Both the position numbers and the translations under genes were made by a program. Shown here piece after piece: positions 13,176 through 63,791 of a DNA stretch of 64,000 bases. The DNA is from Rhodothermales bacterium. GTDB taxonomy: Bacteria; Bacteroidota; Rhodothermia; Rhodothermales; JAHQVL01. The notes beneath the pieces are model-generated. The model was not told the DNA's origin. It did no database searches and saw only the letters and a list, made by a program, of their open reading frames with translations. The first letter of the stretch is position 1. Each line of letters begins with the position of its first letter. The stretch covers positions 40,338 to 104,337 of the forward strand of contig JAWXAX010000302.1 of the NCBI GenBank assembly GCA_034439735.1, read 5' to 3'.

Positions 13176-13205
13176 GTAGAGACACAAAACATCGTGTCTC
13201 CGTAC
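13176..13205 (-). repeat. GTAGAGAC-type hairpin downstream of the MTHFS gene
   Basis: GTAGAGACAC-AAAACATC-GTGTCTCCGTAC. Stem GAGACAC/GTGTCTC. Same flank and stem design as the GAGACGC/GCGTCTC hairpins at 50050, 63590 and 63765. Confidence 0.6.
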
Positions 13206-18050: not shown

Positions 18051-18872
18051 ATGCGCATTGCCATCTGGGACGAGCCGGCACTCGATGTATTTGCGGTGGC
18101 GATGGAGCAAAGCGGACGCTTTGCTCCATCGGCTATCCGCAGGGGCACCCGCGCCCAGTGCCGAAATTGGATCGTCCTCGGTGAAGTGGATGTGGCTCTC
18201 GTGCCCACCCTGACGTTGTTCCGGGAGCAGGCGCTTTTCGATGCACTGCCGGCGGTGGCCATCTCGACGTGGGAATCCACTCTGGTGGAGATCGTGCTCA
18301 ACCGTCCGCTCGGCGAAGGCGTACGCACGGTCAGCTTCGATCCTCGCTACGCCCAGGAAGTGCTGCTAACGCAGATCGTGCTAAAAGAGCATTACCAGAC
18401 CGTCCCGGTGTTTAGACCGGTCGATGCGGAGTCGGTTAACCAGTTGCTCGAAGCGTCGACGGATGCCGCCATCCTGGTTAATGCCGCCTCCGACGCTGGC
18501 GCGGCGGCTACTTACCGGATGGACCTCGGTCGGGAGTGGTTCGAGTTGACGAACTACCCGATGGTATGGGGAATCTTCGTCACCCCTCGCGGGGCCGCGA
18601 ACAGCGATCACGTGCGCCGGCTCACGACGTATGCCGGCATGGCCGAGCAACTCACCGAGTCGTGGCTCGCCGATCGCGTGCTGGACGAACGTCGCGCGGC
18701 CTTCTACCGATCCCACATCCGGTACCGGTTGGACGACCTCGCCGTCGCCAGCTTCACAGCCCTCCAGGATTACCTCTACTTCTACCTGGCCACCGACGAC
18801 ATCGCCCCGGTTTCGTTCTACCAGGTCCCGGAGTCCGAAGCCGACGATTCCGACGACATCCCTCTGTTGTGA
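18051..18872 (+). CDS. MqnA/MqnD-family (PF02621-like) menaquinone-via-futalosine protein, probably chorismate dehydratase
   Basis: ATG 18051 inside the track ORF. Family-like blocks GEVDVALVPTLTLF, VSFDPRYAQEVLLTQIVLKEHY, YRMDLGREWFELTNYPMVWGIFV. Assignment by eye only. Confidence 0.5.
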   Translation: MRIAIWDEPALDVFAVAMEQSGRFAPSAIRRGTRAQCRNWIVLGEVDVALVPTLTLFREQALFDALPAVAISTWESTLVEIVLNRPLGEGVRTVSFDPRYAQEVLLTQIVLKEHYQTVPVFRPVDAESVNQLLEASTDAAILVNAASDAGAAATYRMDLGREWFELTNYPMVWGIFVTPRGAANSDHVRRLTTYAGMAEQLTESWLADRVLDERRAAFYRSHIRYRLDDLAVASFTALQDYLYFYLATDDIAPVSFYQVPESEADDSDDIPLL

Positions 18873-49213: not shown

Positions 49214-49289
49214 TTTCATGTTCACGTCTCGGTCTCGTGGCGTATCATGAGGGCATGGTTTGGCCTTCTTCCTCGTTATAAAGACACCC

Positions 49290-50036
49290 ATGAACGTGTC
49301 CCACGCTGCTGCCTGGCTTCTCTTCCTCTGCCTCGCGCCGGGATCGGGGGCTGCCCAGCCGACGGCCTCGACCGATGTGGTGGCCCGTAGCCTGGCGCTA
49401 CACGATCCAGGCGGCGTATGGTACCAGCGTGCCCATCGGCTCCAGCTCCGAGAAACCCGGCCGGAGGCCGAAGACCGATTGACGGAGGTCGTCCTCGACT
49501 ATCCTGCCGGTCTGTTTGTCATGACCACCGTACGCGAGGGCCGGCGGATAGAAATGCGCCTGCAGGACGAAGGGGGATGTGTTGCCACGCTGGACGGCTC
49601 GACGGAAATCGCGGAAGTCGACCGGAAGAAGTACCGGTTGGATTGCGAGGGTGTCGCCTGGTGGCGCGGGTATCAGGAATACTTGTACGGGCTACCGATG
49701 AAAATTCGAGACGCCGGCGCCACGCTCGAAGCCGAGGCCAAAACCGCCACCTTCAATGGCCGCGAGGCCCTCTCCGTCCGCGTCACCTACGACCCGACCG
49801 TCGGCGGGGACGTCTGGTATTTCTATTTCGACCCCACCACGTTCGCGCTCGTCGGCGCCCGATTCTACCACGACGAGGCCAAAAACGACGGGGAGTACCT
49901 GTATTTTGAGGAGCAAATCTCGGCCGGCGGCATCACGCTGCCGCGAGTCCGCGCGTGGTACTACAACAGCGACGATCGGTATCTGGCCAAAGATATCATC
50001 GAATCGTACGAGCAGGTGCCATCAGGCCAGAATTGA
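49290..50036 (+). CDS. Secreted hypothetical protein
   Basis: ATG 49290 with signal peptide AAWLLFLCLAPGSGAAQP. No motif recognised. Confidence 0.5.
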   Translation: MNVSHAAAWLLFLCLAPGSGAAQPTASTDVVARSLALHDPGGVWYQRAHRLQLRETRPEAEDRLTEVVLDYPAGLFVMTTVREGRRIEMRLQDEGGCVATLDGSTEIAEVDRKKYRLDCEGVAWWRGYQEYLYGLPMKIRDAGATLEAEAKTATFNGREALSVRVTYDPTVGGDVWYFYFDPTTFALVGARFYHDEAKNDGEYLYFEEQISAGGITLPRVRAWYYNSDDRYLAKDIIESYEQVPSGQN

Positions 50037-50049
50037 CCCCGGCACGCCC

Positions 50050-50078
50050 GTAGAGACGCTCCTGTGAAGCGTCTCCTT
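50050..50078. repeat. GTAGAGACGC-type hairpin between convergent genes
   Basis: CGTAGAGACGCT-CCTGTGA-AGCGTCTCC. Stem GAGACGCT/AGCGTCTC. Same core as the palindromes at 63590 and 63765. Confidence 0.65.
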
Positions 50079-50111: not shown

Positions 50112-51359
50112 CTACGGGAGCAATGGGGCGAGATCAGCCTTCATCTTCTCGAACTCCGGCCGTAGCGAATCGGGCAGGGGTTCGGCCGTGTCGGGCAACT
50201 CTTCGCGGAGCGGATCGACCTGGGTGCCGTTGCGCCAGAACCGGTAACACAGGTGCGGCCCCGTGGCGAGCCCCGTGCTGCCGACGAACCCGATCACGTC
50301 GCCCTGCTTGACGAAGGCGCCGGCCTTCACACCGTCCGCGATGCCGGAGAGATGCAGGTAGCCGGTGGTGTAGGTGCTGTTGTGTTTGATCTTGACGTAG
50401 CGGCCGTTGTTTTTTGTGTACGCCGCTTCTTCGACGACCCCATCGGCCGTGGCGCGTACGGGCGTGCCGACCGGCGCGGCGTAGTCGGTGCCGAGGTGCG
50501 CCCGGTACAGCTTCAGCACCGGATGGAACCGGTTGCCGGAATAGCGGGAGCTGATGCGGGAGTAGGAGAGCGGTGCGCGGAGAAACGGCCGGCGCAGGCC
50601 GTTGCCGTCTGCATCGTAATAATCCACCCGGCCCTCGTGTTCGAAGCGGTAAGCGGTATACGTCCGGCCCTGGTGCACGAAGCGCGCGGCCAGCACCTTA
50701 TCCACACCGATCGACTCACCCTCGATATACTGCTCTTCGTACACCGCGGCGAAGGAGTCGCCCCGCATGATCCGGTAGAAGTCCACCTGCCAGGCAAACA
50801 CATCGGACAACGCGACGGCGAGTTGTGGGTCCTTGTCCTGGTTCTGTAGCGTCACATACAGCGACCCGTCGATCGCTCCGCCGGCCTGTTGGCGGCGAAC
50901 GCTCACCTCGCGGTGGCCCTCGAGGATGCGGAGACTGTCGGAAAGGTCGAGGACGACAAAGTCGATCGCGTTCTTCGCGTATACGAAATAGCGAGGCGCT
51001 TTGGGGGCGTCGGGCGCAAAGTAGAACCGATAGGCATTGCCGGCGCGCATGCGCCGGTCGTCGAGCATGGGCCGGGAGGTTTCGGCGATCGTGTGGATGC
51101 GATTAGAAGCGACGCCGTGCCGGGTGAGGAGGTCGGAGAACGTCTCGTTGCGCTGGACCCTGCCATCCGTTATCGCAAAAGCCCCTTCGCGCATGCCGAA
51201 CGCGTCGAACATGAGCGGCAGGCCGGCGGAGGTGAACGGTATGGGCGGCGCGCCCGTGGTCCCGATCGAGGCGGTCGATCGCGGATAAAACAGGAAGAGG
51301 CAGACAAATAACAGGTAGGTGCCCAGGAGGGCGAGCACAGAACGTCGTCGGTGGGGCAT
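50112..51359 (-). CDS. M23 family (LytM-type) metallopeptidase
   Basis: ATG 51359 with N-terminal TM. HLGTDYAAPVGTPVRATADGVV, GYLHLS, GFVGSTGLATGPHLCYRF. Confidence 0.85.
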   Translation of the reverse strand: MPHRRRSVLALLGTYLLFVCLFLFYPRSTASIGTTGAPPIPFTSAGLPLMFDAFGMREGAFAITDGRVQRNETFSDLLTRHGVASNRIHTIAETSRPMLDDRRMRAGNAYRFYFAPDAPKAPRYFVYAKNAIDFVVLDLSDSLRILEGHREVSVRRQQAGGAIDGSLYVTLQNQDKDPQLAVALSDVFAWQVDFYRIMRGDSFAAVYEEQYIEGESIGVDKVLAARFVHQGRTYTAYRFEHEGRVDYYDADGNGLRRPFLRAPLSYSRISSRYSGNRFHPVLKLYRAHLGTDYAAPVGTPVRATADGVVEEAAYTKNNGRYVKIKHNSTYTTGYLHLSGIADGVKAGAFVKQGDVIGFVGSTGLATGPHLCYRFWRNGTQVDPLREELPDTAEPLPDSLRPEFEKMKADLAPLLP

Positions 51360-51477
51360 GCGAAAGTGCCTGATAGCGCCTGTAGGGGGATTACACGGCG
51401 TTGGAGGGAGTTTCGTTGACGGGGCGGGTGTCGAAACTACGAACGGCCGGCGAGAAAAGCACCTCCCGGGCTTTACT

Positions 51478-52032
51478 TCATCCAGGGATCCAGGGCGTTT
51501 CGCCCGAGCCATCCCGATGGTTGGCCCAGCGGGCGAGAACGAAAAGGAAGTCCGACAACCGGTTCAGGTAGATGGCCGATTGCTGGTTGACCGCCTCCTG
51601 CTCGGCGAGCGCCACGACCAGTCGCTCGGCCCGGCGGCAGACGGTGCGGGCGACATGCAGCGCCGCTCCGGCTGGCCGGCCACCCGGCAGGATAAAGTGC
51701 TTGAGCACCGGCACCTCGGCCTCGTACCGGTCGATCTCGGCTTCGATGCGAGTAACCTGATCGGGCGTCGTGCGGGGCACGGATGCCCTGGCTTCGAGCG
51801 GCGTCGCGAGGTCGGCCCCGAGCGTGAACAGGTCTTTCTGGATACTCGTCAGCACCTCGACGAGTCCATCCGCCTGTGGATGCCCCGCGGCATGGGCGAT
51901 CGCCAGGCCGAGGAAGGAATTCGTTTCGTCGACCGACCCGTAGGCTTCGATGCGGAGGTGGTGTTTGGAGACGCGGCCGCCGCCGAAGAGGCCCGTTGTG
52001 CCGTCGTCGCCCGTTCGGGTGTAGATTTTCAC
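51478..52032 (-). CDS. PduO-type ATP:cob(I)alamin adenosyltransferase
   Basis: GTG start. MKIYTRTGDDGTTGLFGGGRVSKHHLRIEAYGSVDE is the family N-terminus. 4-nt overlap with the upstream ABC ATPase gene. Confidence 0.85.
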   Translation of the reverse strand: MKIYTRTGDDGTTGLFGGGRVSKHHLRIEAYGSVDETNSFLGLAIAHAAGHPQADGLVEVLTSIQKDLFTLGADLATPLEARASVPRTTPDQVTRIEAEIDRYEAEVPVLKHFILPGGRPAGAALHVARTVCRRAERLVVALAEQEAVNQQSAIYLNRLSDFLFVLARWANHRDGSGETPWIPG

Positions 52033-55900: not shown

Positions 55901-58900
55901 TCACGCCCCATCGCTCGATTTGATTCGCGCCGCGTACCCGACCCGCCGGCTCCACTCCCGCAAGTCGTCCAGCACGATGTAGATCGTGGGCAGGATGATG
56001 AGGGTCACGACGGTCGAAAAGGTCAGCCCGCCCACGATGGCTCGGGCCATCGGGAAGTACGGCGGACCGTCGCCGCCGATCTGGGTCGATCCAAAACAAA
56101 GCGGGATGAGGCCGAGCACGGTCGTCGCGGCCGTCATGACAATCGGGCGAAAACGGTCGTGGCCGGCCTGGAGGATCGCCTCCCGTCGGGCCAGTCCGGT
56201 GCCGCGGAGGTAGTTGACGTGGTCGATCAATACAATCCCGTTGTTCACCACCACGCCAATCAGGATCAGCACCCCGATCCACGCCATAATCTGGAGGGTG
56301 GTGTTGGTCAGAAAAAAGAACCAGAAGACGCCCACGATGGCGAAGACGATGGACGACCAGATCGCGGCCGGATGGATGAGCGACTCGAACAGGGCCGCCA
56401 TCACCAGGTAGATGAGCATCAGCGCGAGGACGATGTTGATCAGCATCAGCTGCTCGCTGGTCGCCTCGTCGCTCCGTCGCTGGGTGTAGCCCCATTCGTA
56501 GCCGGCCGGCAGCTCGTAGTTCGCCAGCACGGCCTCCAGACGCTCCCGGCCCTCGTCCTTGGTGAGGCCGACGAGGTTGACTTGCACACCCAGCATCGTG
56601 ATCCGGTTTTCGCGTTGGATCGACTGCGGGCCGCGGCGGGCGTCGAGCCGGGCGATGGAGGCCAGGCGGACGGAGGCGTTATCCGGCCCCTGAACAGTCA
56701 GGTTTTCGAGATCCTCCAGGCTTTCCTGGTCGGTCCGCTGGAACGCCAGCCGCATGTCCACCTCGCCGTCCGGAGTCCGGAATCGCCGCAGGTTGTACCC
56801 GCGCATCGCCGTGGAGACGGTGCTCGCGATCTGCTGCGTCGAAAAACCGTACTGCCGCGCCCGTTCCCGGTCCACTACCACCTGAATCTCCTCATCCCCC
56901 CGCGCCGCTTCGGAACGGACATCCACGAACCCATCCACCCGGCTCAGGACGCGCGCGACTTCGTTCGTGATTTCGACGAGCCGCTCGCTGGATTCACCCG
57001 AGATCATGATGCGGAGCCCTTCTTCGTCGTTGCCGCCCTGCCAGCTGAAGGAGGGATTGGCGATGGCGAGCTTCGGGAGGCCGGCGCGAATCGAGTCCTG
57101 TATGGCCTCAAGCGAGCGTACGGACGAGTCCGCCGATACCAGTAGGAGCGAAGACTCGGCGTAACCAGGCTCGAAAAAGGTGTAGACCGATTCGATCTCA
57201 AACGCTTCTTTATTGGCGAACAGGAACGCTTCGACCTGTTCGACAGCCTCTTCCACCCGTTCCAGCGTGTACGAGCCGTTGATGTGGTAGTGCAGGTCGA
57301 TGCGTCGCTCCGTGCCATCGTTGTCGGGGAAAAAATCCATCGTGACGAACCGCGCCGGGATGACGACGCTCACCAGGGTAGCCAGGGTGATGCCCACCGC
57401 GGTCCAACGCCGATCCACCAGCCACTCCAGCACCCGGTCGTACACGCGAACGACGGCATCGATCGCGGTTTTTTTCTCGACCAAATCGGGCGACGGCTTG
57501 AGGCGGGCCATGAGCAAAGGCACGACCGTCAGCGACATGAGCAGCGAGACGCCGAGTGCGATACAGATGGAGATCGCGACGTGTTTCATGAACAGCGTCA
57601 CCTCGTCGGCCGGGCTGACGATGAAGGGGAGGAAGACGATGGCGGTGGTGAGCGTGCCGGCTGTCACGGCCAGGGCCACTTCCTTCACTCCCCGCCGTGT
57701 CGCCTCAAATGGCGCATCCGGGTCCATCACCTGATGTCGATGCACACTCTCGGTCACCACCACGGCATTATCCACCAGCATCCCCACGGCTAACATCAGT
57801 CCCATCATCGACAACACGTTGAGCGACAAGTCAAGGAAATAGAGGGCGCCGAGGGTGATGATGATCGATATCGGGACGGCCAGGGTGACGATGAGCGTCG
57901 TGCTCATCCGACGGAGAAAGATGTACAGCACGATGAGAGAAAGCACGGCGCCGATGACGCCGCTCTGGAGCAAATCCGTGAGCGAGGAGATGATCCCGTC
58001 GGCGGCGTTTTCCATGTAGTAGATGTTGACGCCGAGCAGTTCGGGATCCGCCTTGATCGACTCGATCTCCGCCTCTACCAGCCGGCTCACCGCGACGGTG
58101 TTGGCGCCGGACTCCTTCTGGATGTTCATACCGATGGCGTAGGTCCCGTTAAGGTGCCGGCCTTCCGTCCGCTCCGGCTGCTCGAAGGAGACTTCCGCGA
58201 TGTCGCTGAGCCTCAAGCCATCCGGGTTGAGCACGAGATCGCGGATCTCCTCCAGCGTGTGCAGTTCGCCCAGCGGCCGCAGGGTGAATCGGCGGTTGCT
58301 GTCGGTGATGCGGCCGGCGGTCAGCGAAAAATCGCTCTTACTGAGCTGGTCGGCGAGGTCGACGAGGTTGATCCGGTGCGCCGCCACCCGGTCCGCCCGC
58401 AGCTCGATTCGCACCTCGCGGGGATACACGCCATACAACTCCACCTGCGAGACGCCCTCCACGCGCTCTAGACGCTGCTTCACCTTGCGGTTGAGCAGTT
58501 CGTAGGCGCCCGAGAGATCCTGCTCCGAAGAGATGCGCATCATCAGGATCGGCATGTCCGACGTCGAGAACTGGAACGTGTAATACCGCTCTACATCCGA
58601 CGGCCACTGCCGCTGGATGCCATCCAGCTTCTCGCGCACCTCCAGCCCCTTGAGCGTAGTCTCTTCACCCCAATCGAACTGGAGGAATATATCCGCCCCG
58701 CCCTCGTGCGAGGTGGTGCTGAGCGCTTTCAGCCCGCTGATCGTGGCCAGTACTTCTTCCGCGGGCCGGGTGATCTGTTTTTCAACTTCCTCCGGCGTGG
58801 ACCCCCGGTAGGGTACCTGGACGAAGATGCCCGGGAAGTCCACCGACGGAAAATACTCCAGCGCCAGCAGCCGTGCGGCGATGAGGCCGACGACGACGAG

Positions 58901-58960
58901 CGACAGGTACGACATGACGACCGTCACCGGGCGCCGCAACGAAAGATCGGTGAGGCTCAT
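55901..58960 (-). CDS. Efflux RND transporter permease subunit (second of a tandem pair)
   Basis: 1019 aa, AcrB/HAE-type layout with 12 TM and two large periplasmic loops. 4-nt overlap with the upstream RND gene. Confidence 0.9.
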   Translation of the reverse strand: MSLTDLSLRRPVTVVMSYLSLVVVGLIAARLLALEYFPSVDFPGIFVQVPYRGSTPEEVEKQITRPAEEVLATISGLKALSTTSHEGGADIFLQFDWGEETTLKGLEVREKLDGIQRQWPSDVERYYTFQFSTSDMPILMMRISSEQDLSGAYELLNRKVKQRLERVEGVSQVELYGVYPREVRIELRADRVAAHRINLVDLADQLSKSDFSLTAGRITDSNRRFTLRPLGELHTLEEIRDLVLNPDGLRLSDIAEVSFEQPERTEGRHLNGTYAIGMNIQKESGANTVAVSRLVEAEIESIKADPELLGVNIYYMENAADGIISSLTDLLQSGVIGAVLSLIVLYIFLRRMSTTLIVTLAVPISIIITLGALYFLDLSLNVLSMMGLMLAVGMLVDNAVVVTESVHRHQVMDPDAPFEATRRGVKEVALAVTAGTLTTAIVFLPFIVSPADEVTLFMKHVAISICIALGVSLLMSLTVVPLLMARLKPSPDLVEKKTAIDAVVRVYDRVLEWLVDRRWTAVGITLATLVSVVIPARFVTMDFFPDNDGTERRIDLHYHINGSYTLERVEEAVEQVEAFLFANKEAFEIESVYTFFEPGYAESSLLLVSADSSVRSLEAIQDSIRAGLPKLAIANPSFSWQGGNDEEGLRIMISGESSERLVEITNEVARVLSRVDGFVDVRSEAARGDEEIQVVVDRERARQYGFSTQQIASTVSTAMRGYNLRRFRTPDGEVDMRLAFQRTDQESLEDLENLTVQGPDNASVRLASIARLDARRGPQSIQRENRITMLGVQVNLVGLTKDEGRERLEAVLANYELPAGYEWGYTQRRSDEATSEQLMLINIVLALMLIYLVMAALFESLIHPAAIWSSIVFAIVGVFWFFFLTNTTLQIMAWIGVLILIGVVVNNGIVLIDHVNYLRGTGLARREAILQAGHDRFRPIVMTAATTVLGLIPLCFGSTQIGGDGPPYFPMARAIVGGLTFSTVVTLIILPTIYIVLDDLREWSRRVGYAARIKSSDGA

Positions 58961-61900
58961 GTGGGTTCGGTGGTCGGCGTGGCGTCGGGCTTGCGGTCGA
59001 CGAGGGTGTACATGACGGGGATGACGACGAGGGTCAGCAGGGTGGAGACCGACAGGCCTCCGATGACGGTGATGGCCATCGGGGCGCGGATCTCGGCGCC
59101 ATCGCCGATGCCCAGGGCGAGCGGCGCGAGGCCGAGTACGGTGGTAAGCGTCGTCATCAGGATCGGCCGCAGCCGCAGCCGGCCGGCTTCGAGCACGGCT
59201 TCCGCGCGCGGCATCCCATCTTGCCGAAGCTGATTGATGACATCCACCAGAATGATGGCGTTGTTGACGACGATGCCGGCGAGTAAGATCATCCCGATAA
59301 AGACGACGACACTGATGGTGGAGCCTGTCACCCAGAGCGCCAGCACGGCGCCGATCAGGGCCAGCGGGATGCTAAAAAAGATGATCAACGGGTGCAGCAA
59401 CGACTCGAACTGCGACGCCATGATCAGGTACACCAGGAAAACGGCCAGCACGAGGGCAAAAAGGAGCGAGCGGAAGCTGCGTGTCATCTCCTCGCTCTGG
59501 CCGCTGAGCCGCACCGACAGTCCTGCCGGCATCGCCACACGGCCGATCACCGCGTCTATCTCCTCCGCTGCCGCGCCCAGATCCCCATAGGCCAGGTTCG
59601 CCGAAACGATGGCCACCCGTTCCTGCCCGACCCGCCGGATCTCTCCGGGGCCGACATTCACCACCACCTCGGCGACGGCCGACAGCGGGATGGGGCGGTC
59701 GCTTTCCGGGTTGATGATCAGCTCGCGGATCCGGTCGATGTCCTGCCGATCCCGCTCCTGTACCCGTACGAGCACGTCGATCTTGCGGTCGCGCCACGAA
59801 TACCGCGTCGCCACATCGCCCCGGACGCTGCTTACGACGCGGCGCGCCAATTCGTGCACAGGCAGGCCGAGCGCCGCGGCGCGGTCGCGGTCGAAGAAGA
59901 TCTGGACCTCGGGGTTGCCGGTCTCCATGGTGGATTTGACGTCGGCGAACCGATCCGTGTCGGCCAGGCCGGCGGCGATAGCCTGGGAGACCTCCTTTAG
60001 CCGCGTCAGGTCGTAGCCCGAGACCTCGATTTCTATCGGGGTGTCGAACGTAAAGAGGGTTGGGTAGCTGAATTCGTACTGTACCCCGGGCTCGCCGCGC
60101 AGCGAAGTGCGGAGGGCGTCCATGGCCGTGGCTTCGCCGTCGGAGCCGGCGGCGGGGTCCAGGGCAATATGCACCTCGCCCCAGTTCTCTCCGCCCTGAT
60201 CCGGGTTGGCGTCCATCCGGTTGCCCGTGCCGGCGACGGCGAAGGACGATTGGATGGCCGGCACGTCCAGCGCGGCTCGTTGCATCCGGGTCAGGACCTG
60301 ATCAGTCTGCTCCAGCGGCGTTCCGGGCGCGAGGCGGAAGGACACGTTGAATTCTCCCTGGGTGAGCTGCGGGATCAGTTCGATCCCCAGCCGGGGCACC
60401 AGGGCCAACGATCCCCCGAATGCCAGAAGCGCGAGACCCAGCACGACGGCGCGGTGACCGAGCGACCACCGGAGCAGGGGGAGGTACCGCGCGGCGAGGA
60501 AACCGTACCCCGCGTTGAAGCCGGCCACGAGCGGAGAAAAGGCGATTCGCGCGCCCCGCGAGACCAGTCTGAAGAAGCCGTACACATAGCGAGCGACGGC
60601 GTCTGGAAACCGCTGGAACACCGCCAGCCGCGCCGTCCGCATCGCCCGGCCGAAACGCGTCTTCGGCTCTTTAAGGACAGGTACCGGCGGCGGCTCCGCT
60701 ACGCCCGTTTTTCGGAGCGACGCCATCATTGGAATCAGGGTAATCGCCACGAGCAACGACGCCAGCAGCGAAAACGTTACCGTAAGCGCCTGGTCGCGGA
60801 AGAGCTGGCCGGCGATGCCCTGCACAAAAACGAGCGGGAAAAAGACGGCGATGGTCGTCAACGTCGAGGCGACTACGGCCTGCGTCACCTCCGTTGCCCC
60901 GGTTCGCGCGGCCTCAACGGGGGAAGCGCCGAGTTCGCGATGGCGCGCGATGTTTTCGAGCACGACGATCGAGTTGTCCACCAGCATGCCGATACCCAGC
61001 GCGAGGCCGCCGAGGGACATGATATTCAGCGACAGATCGAAGCCGTACATCATGTTGAAGGTGGCGATGATTGACACCGGGATCGAGACAGAGATGATGA
61101 CCGTCGTCCGGAAATCCCGCAGAAACAGATACAGGATGAAGATGGCCAGCAGGCCCCCGAAGAGGCCGGCGTTCACCACCTCGTTGACGGCGCTTTCGAT
61201 GAAGGTCGATTGATCGTATACCTTCTCGACCGCCATGCTCGACGGCAGACTGCTCTGGATCGCCTCCAGCCGGCGTTCGATGTTGCGGGCGACGTCCACC
61301 GTGTTGGCGTCGCCTTCTTTGTAGATGGCGACTTCGACGGCCTCCCGACCGTTGATCCGGGTGATGGCCTCGCGCTCTTTATAGCCGAGGTTCACCGTGG
61401 CGATGTCGTGGAGGTATACCGGCGCATTCCCGTCCGGCACGATGATCACGTCGCCGATTTCCTCGACGGTGCCGAACTCGTTGACCGTCCGCACCAGGTA
61501 TTCCTGTACGCCTTCTTCGAGCCGGCCGCCCGAGAGGTTGACGTTCTCCGCGCTCAGCACCTGGACGACCTGCCCGGTGGTGAGGTTGAGCTGGGAGAGC
61601 TTTTTCTGGTCGAGAAGCACCTGGACCTCGTCTTCCAGCCCGCCGCTGATTTTCACGGCCGCGACGCCGGCGGTCGATTCCAGGTCCTTTTTGAGCTGCT
61701 CGTCGGCGAATCGGCGAAGCTGTTTGAGTTCGCTGTCGTTGAACGTAGGCTCCTCGGTCGCTCTATCGTCCCCGGCCAGGGCGACTGGCGTGGCGCCGGC
61801 GTCCGCCATGAGTGGGGCATCCGGCTTACGGAACAGCCCGAAACGCATGATGGGATCCAGGCTCGGGTCGAACCGGAGCAGCACCGGTCGCTCCGCTTCG

Positions 61901-62256
61901 AGCGGGAGCTGGAGCGCGTCCAGTTTCTCTCGGACTTCCATCCGCGCCACGTCGATGTCCGCCCCCCAGGCGAATTCGAGGACGACATCCGACTGCCCCG
62001 TGCGCGAGATCGACTCGATCTTGACGAGGTTCTTCACGACTCCGAGGGCCTCCTCGACTGGCTTTGAGATCAGATTTTCAACCTCCGCCGGCGCCGCGCC
62101 GTCGTAGGCGGTGCGGACGGTGAGTGTCGGAAACGTGAGGTCGGGCAGCAGGTTCAGCGACAGCCGGCTCAGGGAAACCCCCCCGAACAATAACACCGCC
62201 AGCGTGAACATGGCGATCGTGACCCGCCGGCGGATGGATAGGTCGATCAGGGACAT
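58957..62256 (-). CDS. Efflux RND transporter permease subunit (first of a tandem pair)
   Basis: 1099 aa, AcrB-type. N-terminus MSLIDLSIRRRVTIAMFTLAVLLFG parallels MSLTDLSLRRPVTVVMSYLSLVVVG of the downstream paralog. Confidence 0.9.
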   Translation of the reverse strand: MSLIDLSIRRRVTIAMFTLAVLLFGGVSLSRLSLNLLPDLTFPTLTVRTAYDGAAPAEVENLISKPVEEALGVVKNLVKIESISRTGQSDVVLEFAWGADIDVARMEVREKLDALQLPLEAERPVLLRFDPSLDPIMRFGLFRKPDAPLMADAGATPVALAGDDRATEEPTFNDSELKQLRRFADEQLKKDLESTAGVAAVKISGGLEDEVQVLLDQKKLSQLNLTTGQVVQVLSAENVNLSGGRLEEGVQEYLVRTVNEFGTVEEIGDVIIVPDGNAPVYLHDIATVNLGYKEREAITRINGREAVEVAIYKEGDANTVDVARNIERRLEAIQSSLPSSMAVEKVYDQSTFIESAVNEVVNAGLFGGLLAIFILYLFLRDFRTTVIISVSIPVSIIATFNMMYGFDLSLNIMSLGGLALGIGMLVDNSIVVLENIARHRELGASPVEAARTGATEVTQAVVASTLTTIAVFFPLVFVQGIAGQLFRDQALTVTFSLLASLLVAITLIPMMASLRKTGVAEPPPVPVLKEPKTRFGRAMRTARLAVFQRFPDAVARYVYGFFRLVSRGARIAFSPLVAGFNAGYGFLAARYLPLLRWSLGHRAVVLGLALLAFGGSLALVPRLGIELIPQLTQGEFNVSFRLAPGTPLEQTDQVLTRMQRAALDVPAIQSSFAVAGTGNRMDANPDQGGENWGEVHIALDPAAGSDGEATAMDALRTSLRGEPGVQYEFSYPTLFTFDTPIEIEVSGYDLTRLKEVSQAIAAGLADTDRFADVKSTMETGNPEVQIFFDRDRAAALGLPVHELARRVVSSVRGDVATRYSWRDRKIDVLVRVQERDRQDIDRIRELIINPESDRPIPLSAVAEVVVNVGPGEIRRVGQERVAIVSANLAYGDLGAAAEEIDAVIGRVAMPAGLSVRLSGQSEEMTRSFRSLLFALVLAVFLVYLIMASQFESLLHPLIIFFSIPLALIGAVLALWVTGSTISVVVFIGMILLAGIVVNNAIILVDVINQLRQDGMPRAEAVLEAGRLRLRPILMTTLTTVLGLAPLALGIGDGAEIRAPMAITVIGGLSVSTLLTLVVIPVMYTLVDRKPDATPTTEPT

Positions 62257-62432
62257 GAGAGGTTGAGGGTTGGCAGGTTACAGGTTGCAGGTTTGCAGGT
62301 TTGCAGGTTTGCAGGTTTGCAGGTTGCAGGTTTGCAGGTTGGCAGGTTACAGGTTGGTTTTATCGTCAGGGCAAGGGCAGCGCCTTCATCTTGAGAAACC
62401 TGCCAACTTGTAACCTGCCAACCTGCAACCTA
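62257..62432 (-). repeat. GCAGGTT/AACCTGC word hairpin, copy 3 (MFP-RND spacer), with a tandem 7/8-mer run
   Basis: Fills the whole 173-nt spacer. Sense strand: TAG GTTGCAGGTTGGCAGGTTACAAGTTGGCAGGTTT, then ~40-nt spacer, then AACCAACCTGTAACCTGCCAACCTGCAAACCTGCAACCTGCAAACCTGCAAACCTGCAAACCTGCAAACCTGCAACCTGTAACCTGCCAACC, ending a few nt before the RND ATG. Confidence 0.85.
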
Positions 62433-63488
62433 TTGCCAGATCACCTCCACCTTGCTGCTGTCGCGTAGGCTGGACTGGCCGGCGGTGATGACGGTGTCGC
62501 CCTCGGCGAGGCCGGCGAGGATTTCGTAATGCTGCGTGTCGCCGTAGCCGCGCTCGATATCCAGCCGGAAGGCTTCGCTGTTACGCACGACGTAGACGGA
62601 GGCGACTTCATCTTCCACGATTACGGCCTCTTTTGGCACGAGGAGGGCGTTGTCGCGGGTGTCGTACACAATCTGGATCCGCCCGAACATGCCCGGCTTG
62701 AGCTGCCGGCTCGCATCCCGCACCTCGATCGTCACCTTGAACGTCCCGGTCGCGGGGTCGACGATCGGGCTGATGCGCTTGATCGAGCCGGTGAAGACGC
62801 TGCCACTCATGGCGTCCACGCCGAGGCGCGCCTCCTGCCCGACACGCAACTTGCCCAGTTCACGCTCCGGCGCGTGCATAACGGCAAGTAGCGGGTCGAA
62901 ATCGGAGATATGGAAGGCCGGATCGCCCACCCGCAGGCTATGGCCGATCTTGATGAACCGCTGGGCGATGATGCCGGCGATGGGGGCGGTGATCATCGTG
63001 TAATCGAGCTCCAGTTTCGCCAGGTTATACGCCGCCTGTTGAGCCTCGAAGTCAGACCGGATCCGCTCGTATTCCTCGACACTGATGAGTTGCTTCTCGT
63101 ACAGCCCTTCGTTGCGCAGGTGTTCGCGTTTGAGTTTGTTGAGATTGACCTCCGTGCGGGCGAGCTCGAGCGCGAGGCGCTCGCCGTCCAGCTTCGCAAG
63201 CGGCTGGCCGGCTTTGACATACTGGCCTTCCTCGACAAACAACTCGGTTACGACGCCACCGGCCTTTGTGGCAACACTGGCCTCTTCTTCTGCTTCCAGG
63301 GAAGCGGTGCCCGTGTAGTAAGCGGATATGGTCCCGCGAGAGGCCGACACGGCTTCGACGGGGATCGTCGTTTCTTCCGCCTTTTCTTCTTCGGGGGATT
63401 TGGATTGAGCTTCGCCGCTGCAGCCGGCGTTGGAATAAGAGAGCAGGGACAACAGCAGGACAACGGCGGTGGATTCTACGGCACGCAT
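62430..63488 (-). CDS. Efflux RND transporter periplasmic adaptor (MFP/HlyD family) lipoprotein
   Basis: ATG 63488. SYSNAGCSG lipobox. Coiled-coil hairpin (LARTEVNLNKLKREHLRNEGLYEKQLIS) and beta-barrel domains typical of the family. Confidence 0.85.
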   Translation of the reverse strand: MRAVESTAVVLLLSLLSYSNAGCSGEAQSKSPEEEKAEETTIPVEAVSASRGTISAYYTGTASLEAEEEASVATKAGGVVTELFVEEGQYVKAGQPLAKLDGERLALELARTEVNLNKLKREHLRNEGLYEKQLISVEEYERIRSDFEAQQAAYNLAKLELDYTMITAPIAGIIAQRFIKIGHSLRVGDPAFHISDFDPLLAVMHAPERELGKLRVGQEARLGVDAMSGSVFTGSIKRISPIVDPATGTFKVTIEVRDASRQLKPGMFGRIQIVYDTRDNALLVPKEAVIVEDEVASVYVVRNSEAFRLDIERGYGDTQHYEILAGLAEGDTVITAGQSSLRDSSKVEVIWQ

Positions 63489-63589
63489 GGACGGCTCCAG
63501 GAGAATGAAAGGCGAGATCGGAACGACGGGATCTACGGATGCCGCGCCGCCGATGTTACAGAGGGGCCGTGGTTCGGTCGTCCCCCGTC

Positions 63590-63791
63590 GTAGAGACGCA
63601 ATACATTGCGTCTCCATCGCGTCGCCGCCATCGCGTCGCCGCCTCACGTCGCCGCCTCACGTCGCCGCATCATGTCGCCGCATCGCGTCGCCCCATCGCG
63701 TCGCCGCATCATGTCGCCGCATCATGTCGCCCCATCGCGTCGGCCCATCGCCCCGGCCGTCCATTGGAGACGCAATGTATTGCGTCTCTAC
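63590..63791. repeat. Composite element: 27-bp perfect inverted repeats (each a near-palindrome) flanking ~11 tandem 13/14-bp units
   Basis: Left GTAGAGACGCAATACATTGCGTCTCCA (63590-63616). Right TGGAGACGCAATGTATTGCGTCTCTAC (63765-63791) is its exact reverse complement. Core is (C)ATCGCGTCGCCGC / CTCACGTCGCCGC / ATCATGTCGCCGC units. The right repeat contains the stop codon of the TonB-dependent receptor gene. Confidence 0.85.

Follow-up and report, generated by a model that had tools for sequence, protein, structure and literature searches.

Near one end of a 64,000-nt stretch of a Rhodothermales MAG, hereafter the window, two perfect inverted repeats enclosing a tandem array lie between a TonB-dependent receptor gene and an RND efflux operon. 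What this composite is, how it came to lie there and what its repetitive core represents are the questions raised by the locus. A preliminary description, made from the sequence alone, proposed either a non-autonomous, MITE-like mobile element or a REP pair (BIME-like) with an expandable core. REPs are small non-coding elements moved by a domesticated tyrosine transposase, and they are among the most abundant non-coding repeats of bacteria. The element and its immediate surroundings comprise the following features (loci and contigs used for comparison are cited throughout by L numbers):

63590-63616, plus strand: left arm (REP-L), with a GTAG foot at 63590-63593, the hairpin GAGACGCAAT-AC-ATTGCGTCTC at 63593-63614 and a footless inner end, ...CCA
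63617-63764, plus strand: spacer, a tandem array with units TCGCGTCGCCGCCA, TCGCGTCGCCGCC, TCACGTCGCCGCC and others
63765-63791, minus strand: right arm (REP-R), the exact reverse complement of REP-L, with its GTAG foot at 63791-63788 on the minus strand
63788-63790, minus strand: TAG stop codon of the TonB-dependent receptor, inside the right arm, where it forms the last three bases of the REP-R GTAG foot
63562-63589, minus strand: 28-nt stretch between the element and the conserved block, aligning loosely with 12 nt of the empty site of the 93% relative (see below)
63489-63561, minus strand: conserved block, 73 nt shared with the 93% and 90% relatives, reading CTGTAACATC...GTCC before the ATG
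62430-63488, minus strand: RND efflux periplasmic adaptor (MFP), the first gene of the operon, starting at 63488
58957-62256 and 55901-58960: two ACR_tran pumps, following the MFP gene

The arms (63590-63616 and 63765-63791) are 27 nt each, 100% complementary and separated by 148 nt, and both contain a 10+2+10 palindrome, GAGACGCAAT-(AC/GT)-ATTGCGTCTC; the preliminary description of exact reverse complements, each near-palindromic, thus holds at 27 of 27 positions. The last G of each GTAG doubles as the first base of the stem, which consists of 10 perfect base pairs and two central nucleotides. As single-stranded DNA the arms are predicted to fold into 9-10 bp with a 4-nt loop at ca. -10 kcal/mol, with a hairpin z of about -4.3 to -4.9. 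The feet of REP-L and REP-R both point outwards, forming an HH dimer, and the inner side of each hairpin ends in ...CTCCA. Each hairpin is therefore single-footed, and GTAG and CTAC bound the composite only as a whole. The 22-mer pattern has two matches in the window against 0.00 expected, a shuffled window never yielding it. The element is flanked by CCTTG and GACGG, and no target-site duplication, as already observed from the sequence, is found in these flanks or on comparison with an empty site.

Between the arms, Tandem Repeats Finder (TRF) reports a period of 13 over 63615-63751, with 10.5 copies, 87% matches, a score of 167 and a degenerate tail beyond. Placed in register over 63617-63764, the array contains one 14-nt unit, nine 13-nt units and a 17-nt degenerate end, in agreement with the eleven or so units of 13/14 bp first counted. 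Structure prediction, which had been proposed at the outset, gives a fold of -128 kcal/mol (z = -5.1) for the sense transcript, with the two arms paired with each other. Scans of the element detected neither an intrinsic terminator nor a sigma-70-like promoter. The sense strand after REP-L reads CGACGGGGGA and holds no U-tract, and Rfam returned no match at E <= 1 for the element region. This region has the same sequence in eight independent assemblies made from different samples (JGI and Logan); seven cover all 411 nt, and L003, whose contig begins inside the region, covers the last 351 nt. Unit count does not vary among these 8 assemblies of the population.

The genes around the element are all on the minus strand and, by Pfam, encode the receptor (Plug/TonB_dep_Rec), which ends in ...GVNVTL before its stop codon, the adaptor (BSH_RND) and the two pumps (ACR_tran). 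The receptor TAG does lie in the right arm, at 63790-63788, and the left arm is 101 nt from the MFP start, which had been estimated at about 100 nt and is fixed by full-length homologues. A coding array was considered and rejected, since a period of 13 nt is not divisible by 3 and those homologues set the MFP start at 63488. The conserved block at 63489-63561 is likely to represent the 5' UTR of the efflux operon or its proximal control region. The element, which the preliminary description placed in the efflux promoter region as a putative modulator of operon expression, does not interrupt this block, which lies intact between it and the MFP start. A histidine kinase/LytTR pair is found in the neighbourhood, both here and in the relative with 80% MFP identity, with LytTR encoded 4 kb upstream. 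Near this pair, SpoIID and the receptor block, a DDE_Tnp_IS66 transposase fragment is located at L001:9-563, approximately 9-10 kb past the high end of the window, with no evident relation to the REP element.

Related genomes show the site without the element. The closest relative, GCA_041738655.1, with an MFP 93% identical, has an empty site and an intergenic region of 84 nt, reading ...CTGTAG / GGGCCGGACGCC / CTGTAACATC, while the window reads ...TTG TAG / AGACGC...CTCTAC plus 28 nt / CTGTAACATC... at the same place. A second relative (90% MFP identity) has 132 intergenic nucleotides and no REP, and in those with 80% and 76% identity an asparaginase gene occupies the other strand, again with no REP in the compared DNA. 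Since the 93% and 90% relatives have the empty site, parsimony on these sequences makes it most likely that the element was gained in the lineage of the window, without target-site duplication. The G-TAG of the receptor stop is already present in the empty site of the 93% relative, so the receptor C-terminus was left unchanged by the element. Of the comparison of orthologous loci that had been suggested, the differences in presence and absence were thus borne out, whereas differences in unit count were not, the eight assemblies being identical. As a separate observation, the asparaginase gene of the more distant relatives (Asparaginase_2, opposite strand, between receptor and MFP, at L129:8849-9817 and L133:968-1963) is missing from the window and from the 90-93% relatives, which indicates that the receptor-MFP intergenic region was remodelled more than once.

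Within the window, the arms are not the only hairpins of their type. The pattern GTAGAGAC-N(4-20)-GTCTCC gives 4 matches at 3 intergenic loci in the 64 kb, against 0.01 expected, namely the two arms and two singletons, all of the single-foot form (...GTCTCC):

13176-13201, plus strand: diverged singleton REP GTAGAGACACAAAACATCGTGTCTCC, in an intergenic gap between minus-strand ORFs
50050-50076, plus strand: singleton REP GTAGAGACGCTCCTGTGAAGCGTCTCC, in a 75-nt gap between convergent ORFs

The copy at 13176 matches REP-L at 22 of 27 positions (13176-13202), with one compensatory change of a stem pair from G-C to A-T. The copy at 50050 starts 14 nt past the stop of the ORF at 49260-50036 (plus strand), and the convergent ORF is at 50112-51512 (minus strand). 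Both singletons keep the foot and basal stem and differ from the arms in the apical part. A search for the 27-mer, as had been advised, thus recovers hairpins of the family in the window as diverged singletons; no second doublet or full-length composite occurs within the 64 kb. Furthermore, an HMM search for RAYT genes was negative for the window, for the 10 kb past its end (L001) and for the loci of the relatives, and since neither the window nor these 10 kb contain one, the element may be a relic. Elsewhere in the window, at 18096-18135 (plus strand), a perfect palindrome with 15-bp arms, CGATGGAGCAAAGCG-GA-CGCTTTGCTCCATCG, follows directly on GTGG at a place where long ORFs run on both strands, and may represent a second, GTGG-footed REP type or an intragenic REP.

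The hairpin is far from confined to this genome. An identical 22-nt core occurs in at least 120 genome stretches, with one genome per species scanned, and the matches listed come from Bacteroidota, Planctomycetota, Anaerolineales, cyanobacteria, Desulfobacterota, Coxiellaceae, Leptospirales and others, in loci with a GC content of 30% to 66%. Among the same matches, the commonest form is a 28-nt double-foot palindrome, GTAGAGACGCAATGCATTGCGTCTCTAC (GTAG...CTAC), at 87 of 125 sites, and the single-foot form accounts for 29 of 125. The sites are mostly intergenic, 23% of those in the matches listed falling in open stretches of at least 200 aa versus 74% of random positions. A metagenome scan for the single-foot form, GTAG...CTCCA, returned 76 stretches; it missed the window's own locus, the collection apparently being without those samples, and is therefore uninformative on copy number in the window genome. 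Only 2 matches to the motif were found in viral contigs, giving no sign of phage carriage. Rfam gave no match at gathering score for 18 related loci, and the sole match of a literature search with the exact sequence was an unrelated primer. At the orthologous loci L179:10601-10627 and L206:1541-1567 the flanks are only 87% identical and the 27-nt REP is unchanged, so the hairpin is more strongly conserved than its surroundings. It had been held that a 27-mer found only as isolated hairpins would speak against the proposed composite; paired and composite copies do exist in other genomes. In addition, at 7 of the 87 double-foot sites (L074, L087, L090, L119, L122, L124 and L058) the palindrome extends by at least 4 bp into locus-specific flanks. 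These extensions resemble an inverted duplication of the flank around the REP, for which fold-back priming is one possible cause.

Clustering of ORFs over the 120 genome loci identifies one family with the hairpin inside the ORF, and this family links the REP to an enzyme. An HMM built for this RAYT-like family finds it in 12 of the 120 genome loci (matches listed) and in 11 of the 76 metagenome loci, and at all 23 RAYT-bearing loci the REP lies inside the gene or at most 300 nt from it. Across loci, a Y1 HUH transposase is the only gene family enriched beside the hairpin. The RAYT-like protein scores 55.9 bits with NCBIfam REP_Tyr_transpos, under the cut-off of 80, the match being split by an insertion; Pfam gives no Y1_Tnp match, probably because this insertion splits the domain. 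JGI labels relatives of the protein 'REP element-mobilizing transposase RayT'. No named Rhodothermales was found among the 120 homologues listed of 5685 matches. The motifs NHFH, WQ and YIxNNP, together with the in-gene REPs, fit subclass 2.4, for which 'long' and 'double foot' REPs, REPs inserted in tnpA-REP and short repeats in a variable linker have been described (Quentin 2018, PMC6006769). Enzymes of group 4, the corresponding class of Bertels et al., occur in 17 bacterial classes (PMC5581495). In two metagenome contigs of 98-99% identity, L134:2540-2575 and L192:3200-3270, the RAYT linker differs by a REP-bearing segment, with 61 nt in one and 13 nt in the other, an in-frame difference of 48 nt. 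This sequence comparison indicates a recent gain or loss of a REP inside the transposase gene, of which it is direct evidence.

The array in the window also has counterparts. Its units are in phase with the 3' arm of REP-L, CATTGCGTCTCCA, and resemble it. The TRF consensus CATCGCGTCGCCG, which corresponds to the units adjoining the REP, agrees with the arm at 10 of 13 positions, which is significant, as 0.3% of shuffles and 1.1% of window 13-mers score as high; the majority consensus agrees at 9 of 13, which is not significant, as 5.9% of shuffles do equally well. This similarity is modest, and a derivation of the array from the REP-L 3' arm is suggested by the sequence and draws its support mainly from the analogy with other loci. 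At many metagenome single-foot sites, tandem copies of the 3' arm are found on the CCA side. Over 67 non-redundant single-foot sites, a tandem repeat adjoins the REP on the footless side in 12 and on the GTAG side in 1, and a second complete REP follows in 13. In the unbiased genome set (matches listed), a tandem repeat lies within 6 nt of 17% of hairpins versus 4.8% of random positions. Individual loci illustrate the range:

L185: seven 21-nt units, CCATAGCGCATTGCGTCTCCA, after the REP, arm-derived
L183: at least 10 units of 18 nt ending in CTCCA, up to the contig end
L193 and L186: arm-derived arrays similar to those of L185 and L183
L136, L162, L182 and L200: a second REP ending in CTCTAC follows the first
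L209: the complete architecture, in which a REP and three decayed arm units are followed by a closing REP

On the plus strand the window element has the same polarity as these footless-side arrays, and because of the 12 of 67 against 1 of 67 bias elsewhere, its array fits a recurring architecture of a REP with an array on its footless side. The 'expandable core' of the preliminary description therefore gains comparative backing from the 12 of 67 sites elsewhere but not at the locus itself, where the eight assemblies are identical. At orthologous array loci in other genomes, the usable pairs have identical unit counts or are cut by contig ends. Larger units that each contain a REP were also seen, of 145 bp in ca. 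3 copies at L114:2168-2621 and of about 60-70 nt in at least 7 copies at L208:3908-4330. Polar, apparently arm-derived arrays bounded by two feet are not described in the REP/RAYT papers cited here.

REPs are defined by GT[AG]G located 0-2 nt 5' of the hairpin foot, a basal stem paired throughout its 7-20 nt and a loop of 2-5 nt, with G or C in three or more of the first four stem positions or a stem G+C of at least 50%; further, copies should be many, dispersed and mainly extragenic, with a cognate RAYT/TnpA-REP flanked by or containing the REP (Quentin 2018, PMC6006769). The window arms show the foot tetranucleotide, stem length and loop so defined. Their first four stem bases, GAGA, contain 2 G/C and fall short of the first G+C option, and the whole stem, GAGACGCAAT, with 50% G+C just reaches the second. 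REPs of subclass 2.4 resemble them in having a perfect hairpin with GT[AG]G at its foot, in the 'double foot' that is also the commonest cross-genome form here (the 87 of 125 sites among the matches listed), and in a host range of Bacteroidota, cyanobacteria and scattered phyla. The window copies differ in that they are single-footed, a 5' GT[AG]G and a 3' C[TC]AC not occurring on the same hairpin, in the outward-footed dimer around a 148-nt array, and in the absence of a RAYT gene within the window. In addition, Quentin et al. regard REPs as species-specific (PMC6006769), whereas the 22-mer is identical across phyla; one REP sequence with such a distribution, as it appears from these matches, is not described in the REP/RAYT papers cited here.

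Doublets of this kind recall the REPINs (Bertels and Rainey 2011) and the BIMEs of E. coli. Inverted REPs can be folded into one long hairpin, the arms of the doublet are perfect and the singletons diverged, as the REPIN decay model predicts, and the element is intergenic, downstream of a gene and without target-site duplication. Against an identity as a REPIN, for which a short spacer common to many doublets is typical, the window has a single doublet with an array as spacer, and its 148 nt exceed the usual 20-100 nt; there is no second copy of the doublet to show that the 148-nt spacer belongs to the mobile unit. Descriptions of REPINs moreover concern groups 2 and 3 in Gammaproteobacteria and include neither group 4 nor Rhodothermales. 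The super-family of GTAG-tagged REPs (Di Nocera, De Gregorio and Rocco 2013, PMC3733652) shares the unpaired GTAG tag, HH dimers with GTAG termini outside, a location between co-directional ORFs and downstream of coding regions, and a mention of tandem-reiterated clusters. It differs in its spacers of 20-100 bp, in listing Bacteroidetes only under CGTC repeats and in describing no arm-derived arrays on the footless side. The ends of IS200/IS605 elements (IS608, ISDra2) likewise have a subterminal hairpin and a 5' guide tetranucleotide, are recognised as ssDNA by a Y1 HUH enzyme and insert 3' of a short target without duplication, but the window hairpins are identical inverted copies instead of distinct left and right ends, with no transposase gene between them.

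The evidence assembled above bears directly on the two readings originally offered. As a classical MITE, the element would be a deletion derivative of an IS, with 27-bp TIRs recognised by a DDE transposase around a repetitive core. Its perfect 27-bp inverted termini, total of about 200 bp, intergenic position and presence or absence between related strains are indeed features of bacterial MITEs such as Nezha, ERIC and RUP, and the IS66-family transposase fragment is some 10 kb away. MITEs are, however, recognised by a target-site duplication and by termini common to an autonomous IS and several full-length copies, and here there is neither a duplication nor a cognate DDE insertion sequence, and a second full-length copy was not found in the window. 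The supposed TIR is itself a palindrome that is mostly solitary in more than 190 loci, and the only gene family enriched beside it is of the Y1 HUH type, not DDE. This reading is largely refuted and very unlikely. The element is instead a REP pair, not a TIR-type MITE: the BIME-like option of the preliminary description stands, with GTAG-footed hairpins, a RAYT-tied family, paired copies elsewhere and empty sites in close relatives.

Explanations without a mobile origin were also considered. A host-evolved regulatory region, with two terminator or attenuator hairpins and a variable-number repeat upstream of the efflux operon, would suit a position between two co-oriented transcription units, the strong predicted RNA structure and the role of E. 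coli REPs as 3' UTR regulators. Local evolution offers no explanation, however, for an identical 22-nt core in genomes of many phyla and 30-66% GC; the G+C-rich stem-loop followed by a U-tract that characterises an intrinsic terminator is absent, close relatives are without the element and the 8 assemblies show no length variation, which leaves such an origin unlikely. The 13-bp units could otherwise be iterated sites for a DNA-binding protein, e.g., a LytTR regulator, with the hairpins incidental, and eleven direct repeats upstream of an operon, with the histidine kinase/LytTR pair close by here and in the 80% relative, might suggest as much. Relatives nevertheless keep the two-component system and operon without the array, a 13-bp period sets successive sites on different faces of the helix, and arrays of unrelated units adjoin the same hairpin in unrelated genomes, which points to a structural origin and not to a shared binding site; iterated binding sites are thus highly improbable. 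Finally, short-read metagenome assemblies can mis-resolve tandem repeats, and the composite could in principle be a chimeric or collapsed repeat. The structure is not an assembly artefact, since two pipelines arrived at the same sequence in eight independent assemblies of different samples, the array being in addition shorter than a read pair and carrying phased variants; the probability of such an error is negligible.

The element is, in our assessment, probably a REP doublet, REPIN/BIME-like with its GTAG feet out, of a GTAG-tagged REP family cognate to RAYT/TnpA-REP subclass 2.4 (Bertels group 4), and this estimate extends to the mobilisation, array growth and host effect proposed as follows. 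A Y1 (HUH) transposase acting on single-stranded DNA would have placed the doublet directly 3' of the receptor G-TAG. The REP 3' arm would then have been duplicated in tandem, so that the spacer lengthened in place, either through replication slippage provoked by the hairpin or through successive rounds of cutting and rejoining at the CA/CT that immediately follows the stem on its 3' side. We know of no experimental study of group 4 or subclass 2.4 enzymes. Mobilisation by a Y1 enzyme on ssDNA is inferred from work on TnpA-REP of groups 2 and 3, enzymes that GTAG directs to cleave at CT or CA on either the 5' or the 3' side of the stem (PMC8266576), and the cleavage chemistry assumed for subclass 2.4 would likewise be an extrapolation from those groups.

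For the host, an effect at the RNA level would be the most plausible consequence of the REP doublet, by analogy with E. coli, where a REP cluster between tandem genes acts as a partial, partly Rho-dependent terminator and stabiliser of upstream mRNA (bioRxiv 10.64898/2026.03.23.713779). The sense transcript would carry a long stem of at least 27 bp directly after the receptor stop codon. As in the E. coli REPs, this stem would make the upstream mRNA more stable and reduce read-through into the efflux operon, whose conserved proximal region stays intact. The stakes for the host are small and may amount, at most, to a tuning of the balance between the TonB-dependent receptor and the downstream RND efflux operon.

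A bolder proposal, which we regard as possible but doubtful, would see in the composite a footprint of REP processing by subclass-2.4 RAYTs. A nick at CA/CT 3' of the stem, followed by rejoining or by priming from a folded-back end, would multiply the 3' arm until polar minisatellites arise and would also make the CTAC foot and the locus-specific extensions of the palindrome, and the in-frame REP within the gene would be a seed travelling with it. If true, such a gene-borne seed would explain how one 22-nt REP can be identical across more than ten phyla. How RAYTs disseminate REPs has been called unsolved (PMC8266576), and the arrays would, in the same event, offer a sequence-level handle on this process.

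Taken with the window, approximately 200 related loci present one REP common to very distant phyla and tied to one RAYT subclass, a gain without duplication at a defined site that is empty in relatives and immediately follows a G-TAG stop, and a footless side prone to arrays derived from the hairpin arm. These features of the locus yield concrete predictions for the biochemistry of the family, with regard to the cleavage site, strand transfer and fold-back priming.
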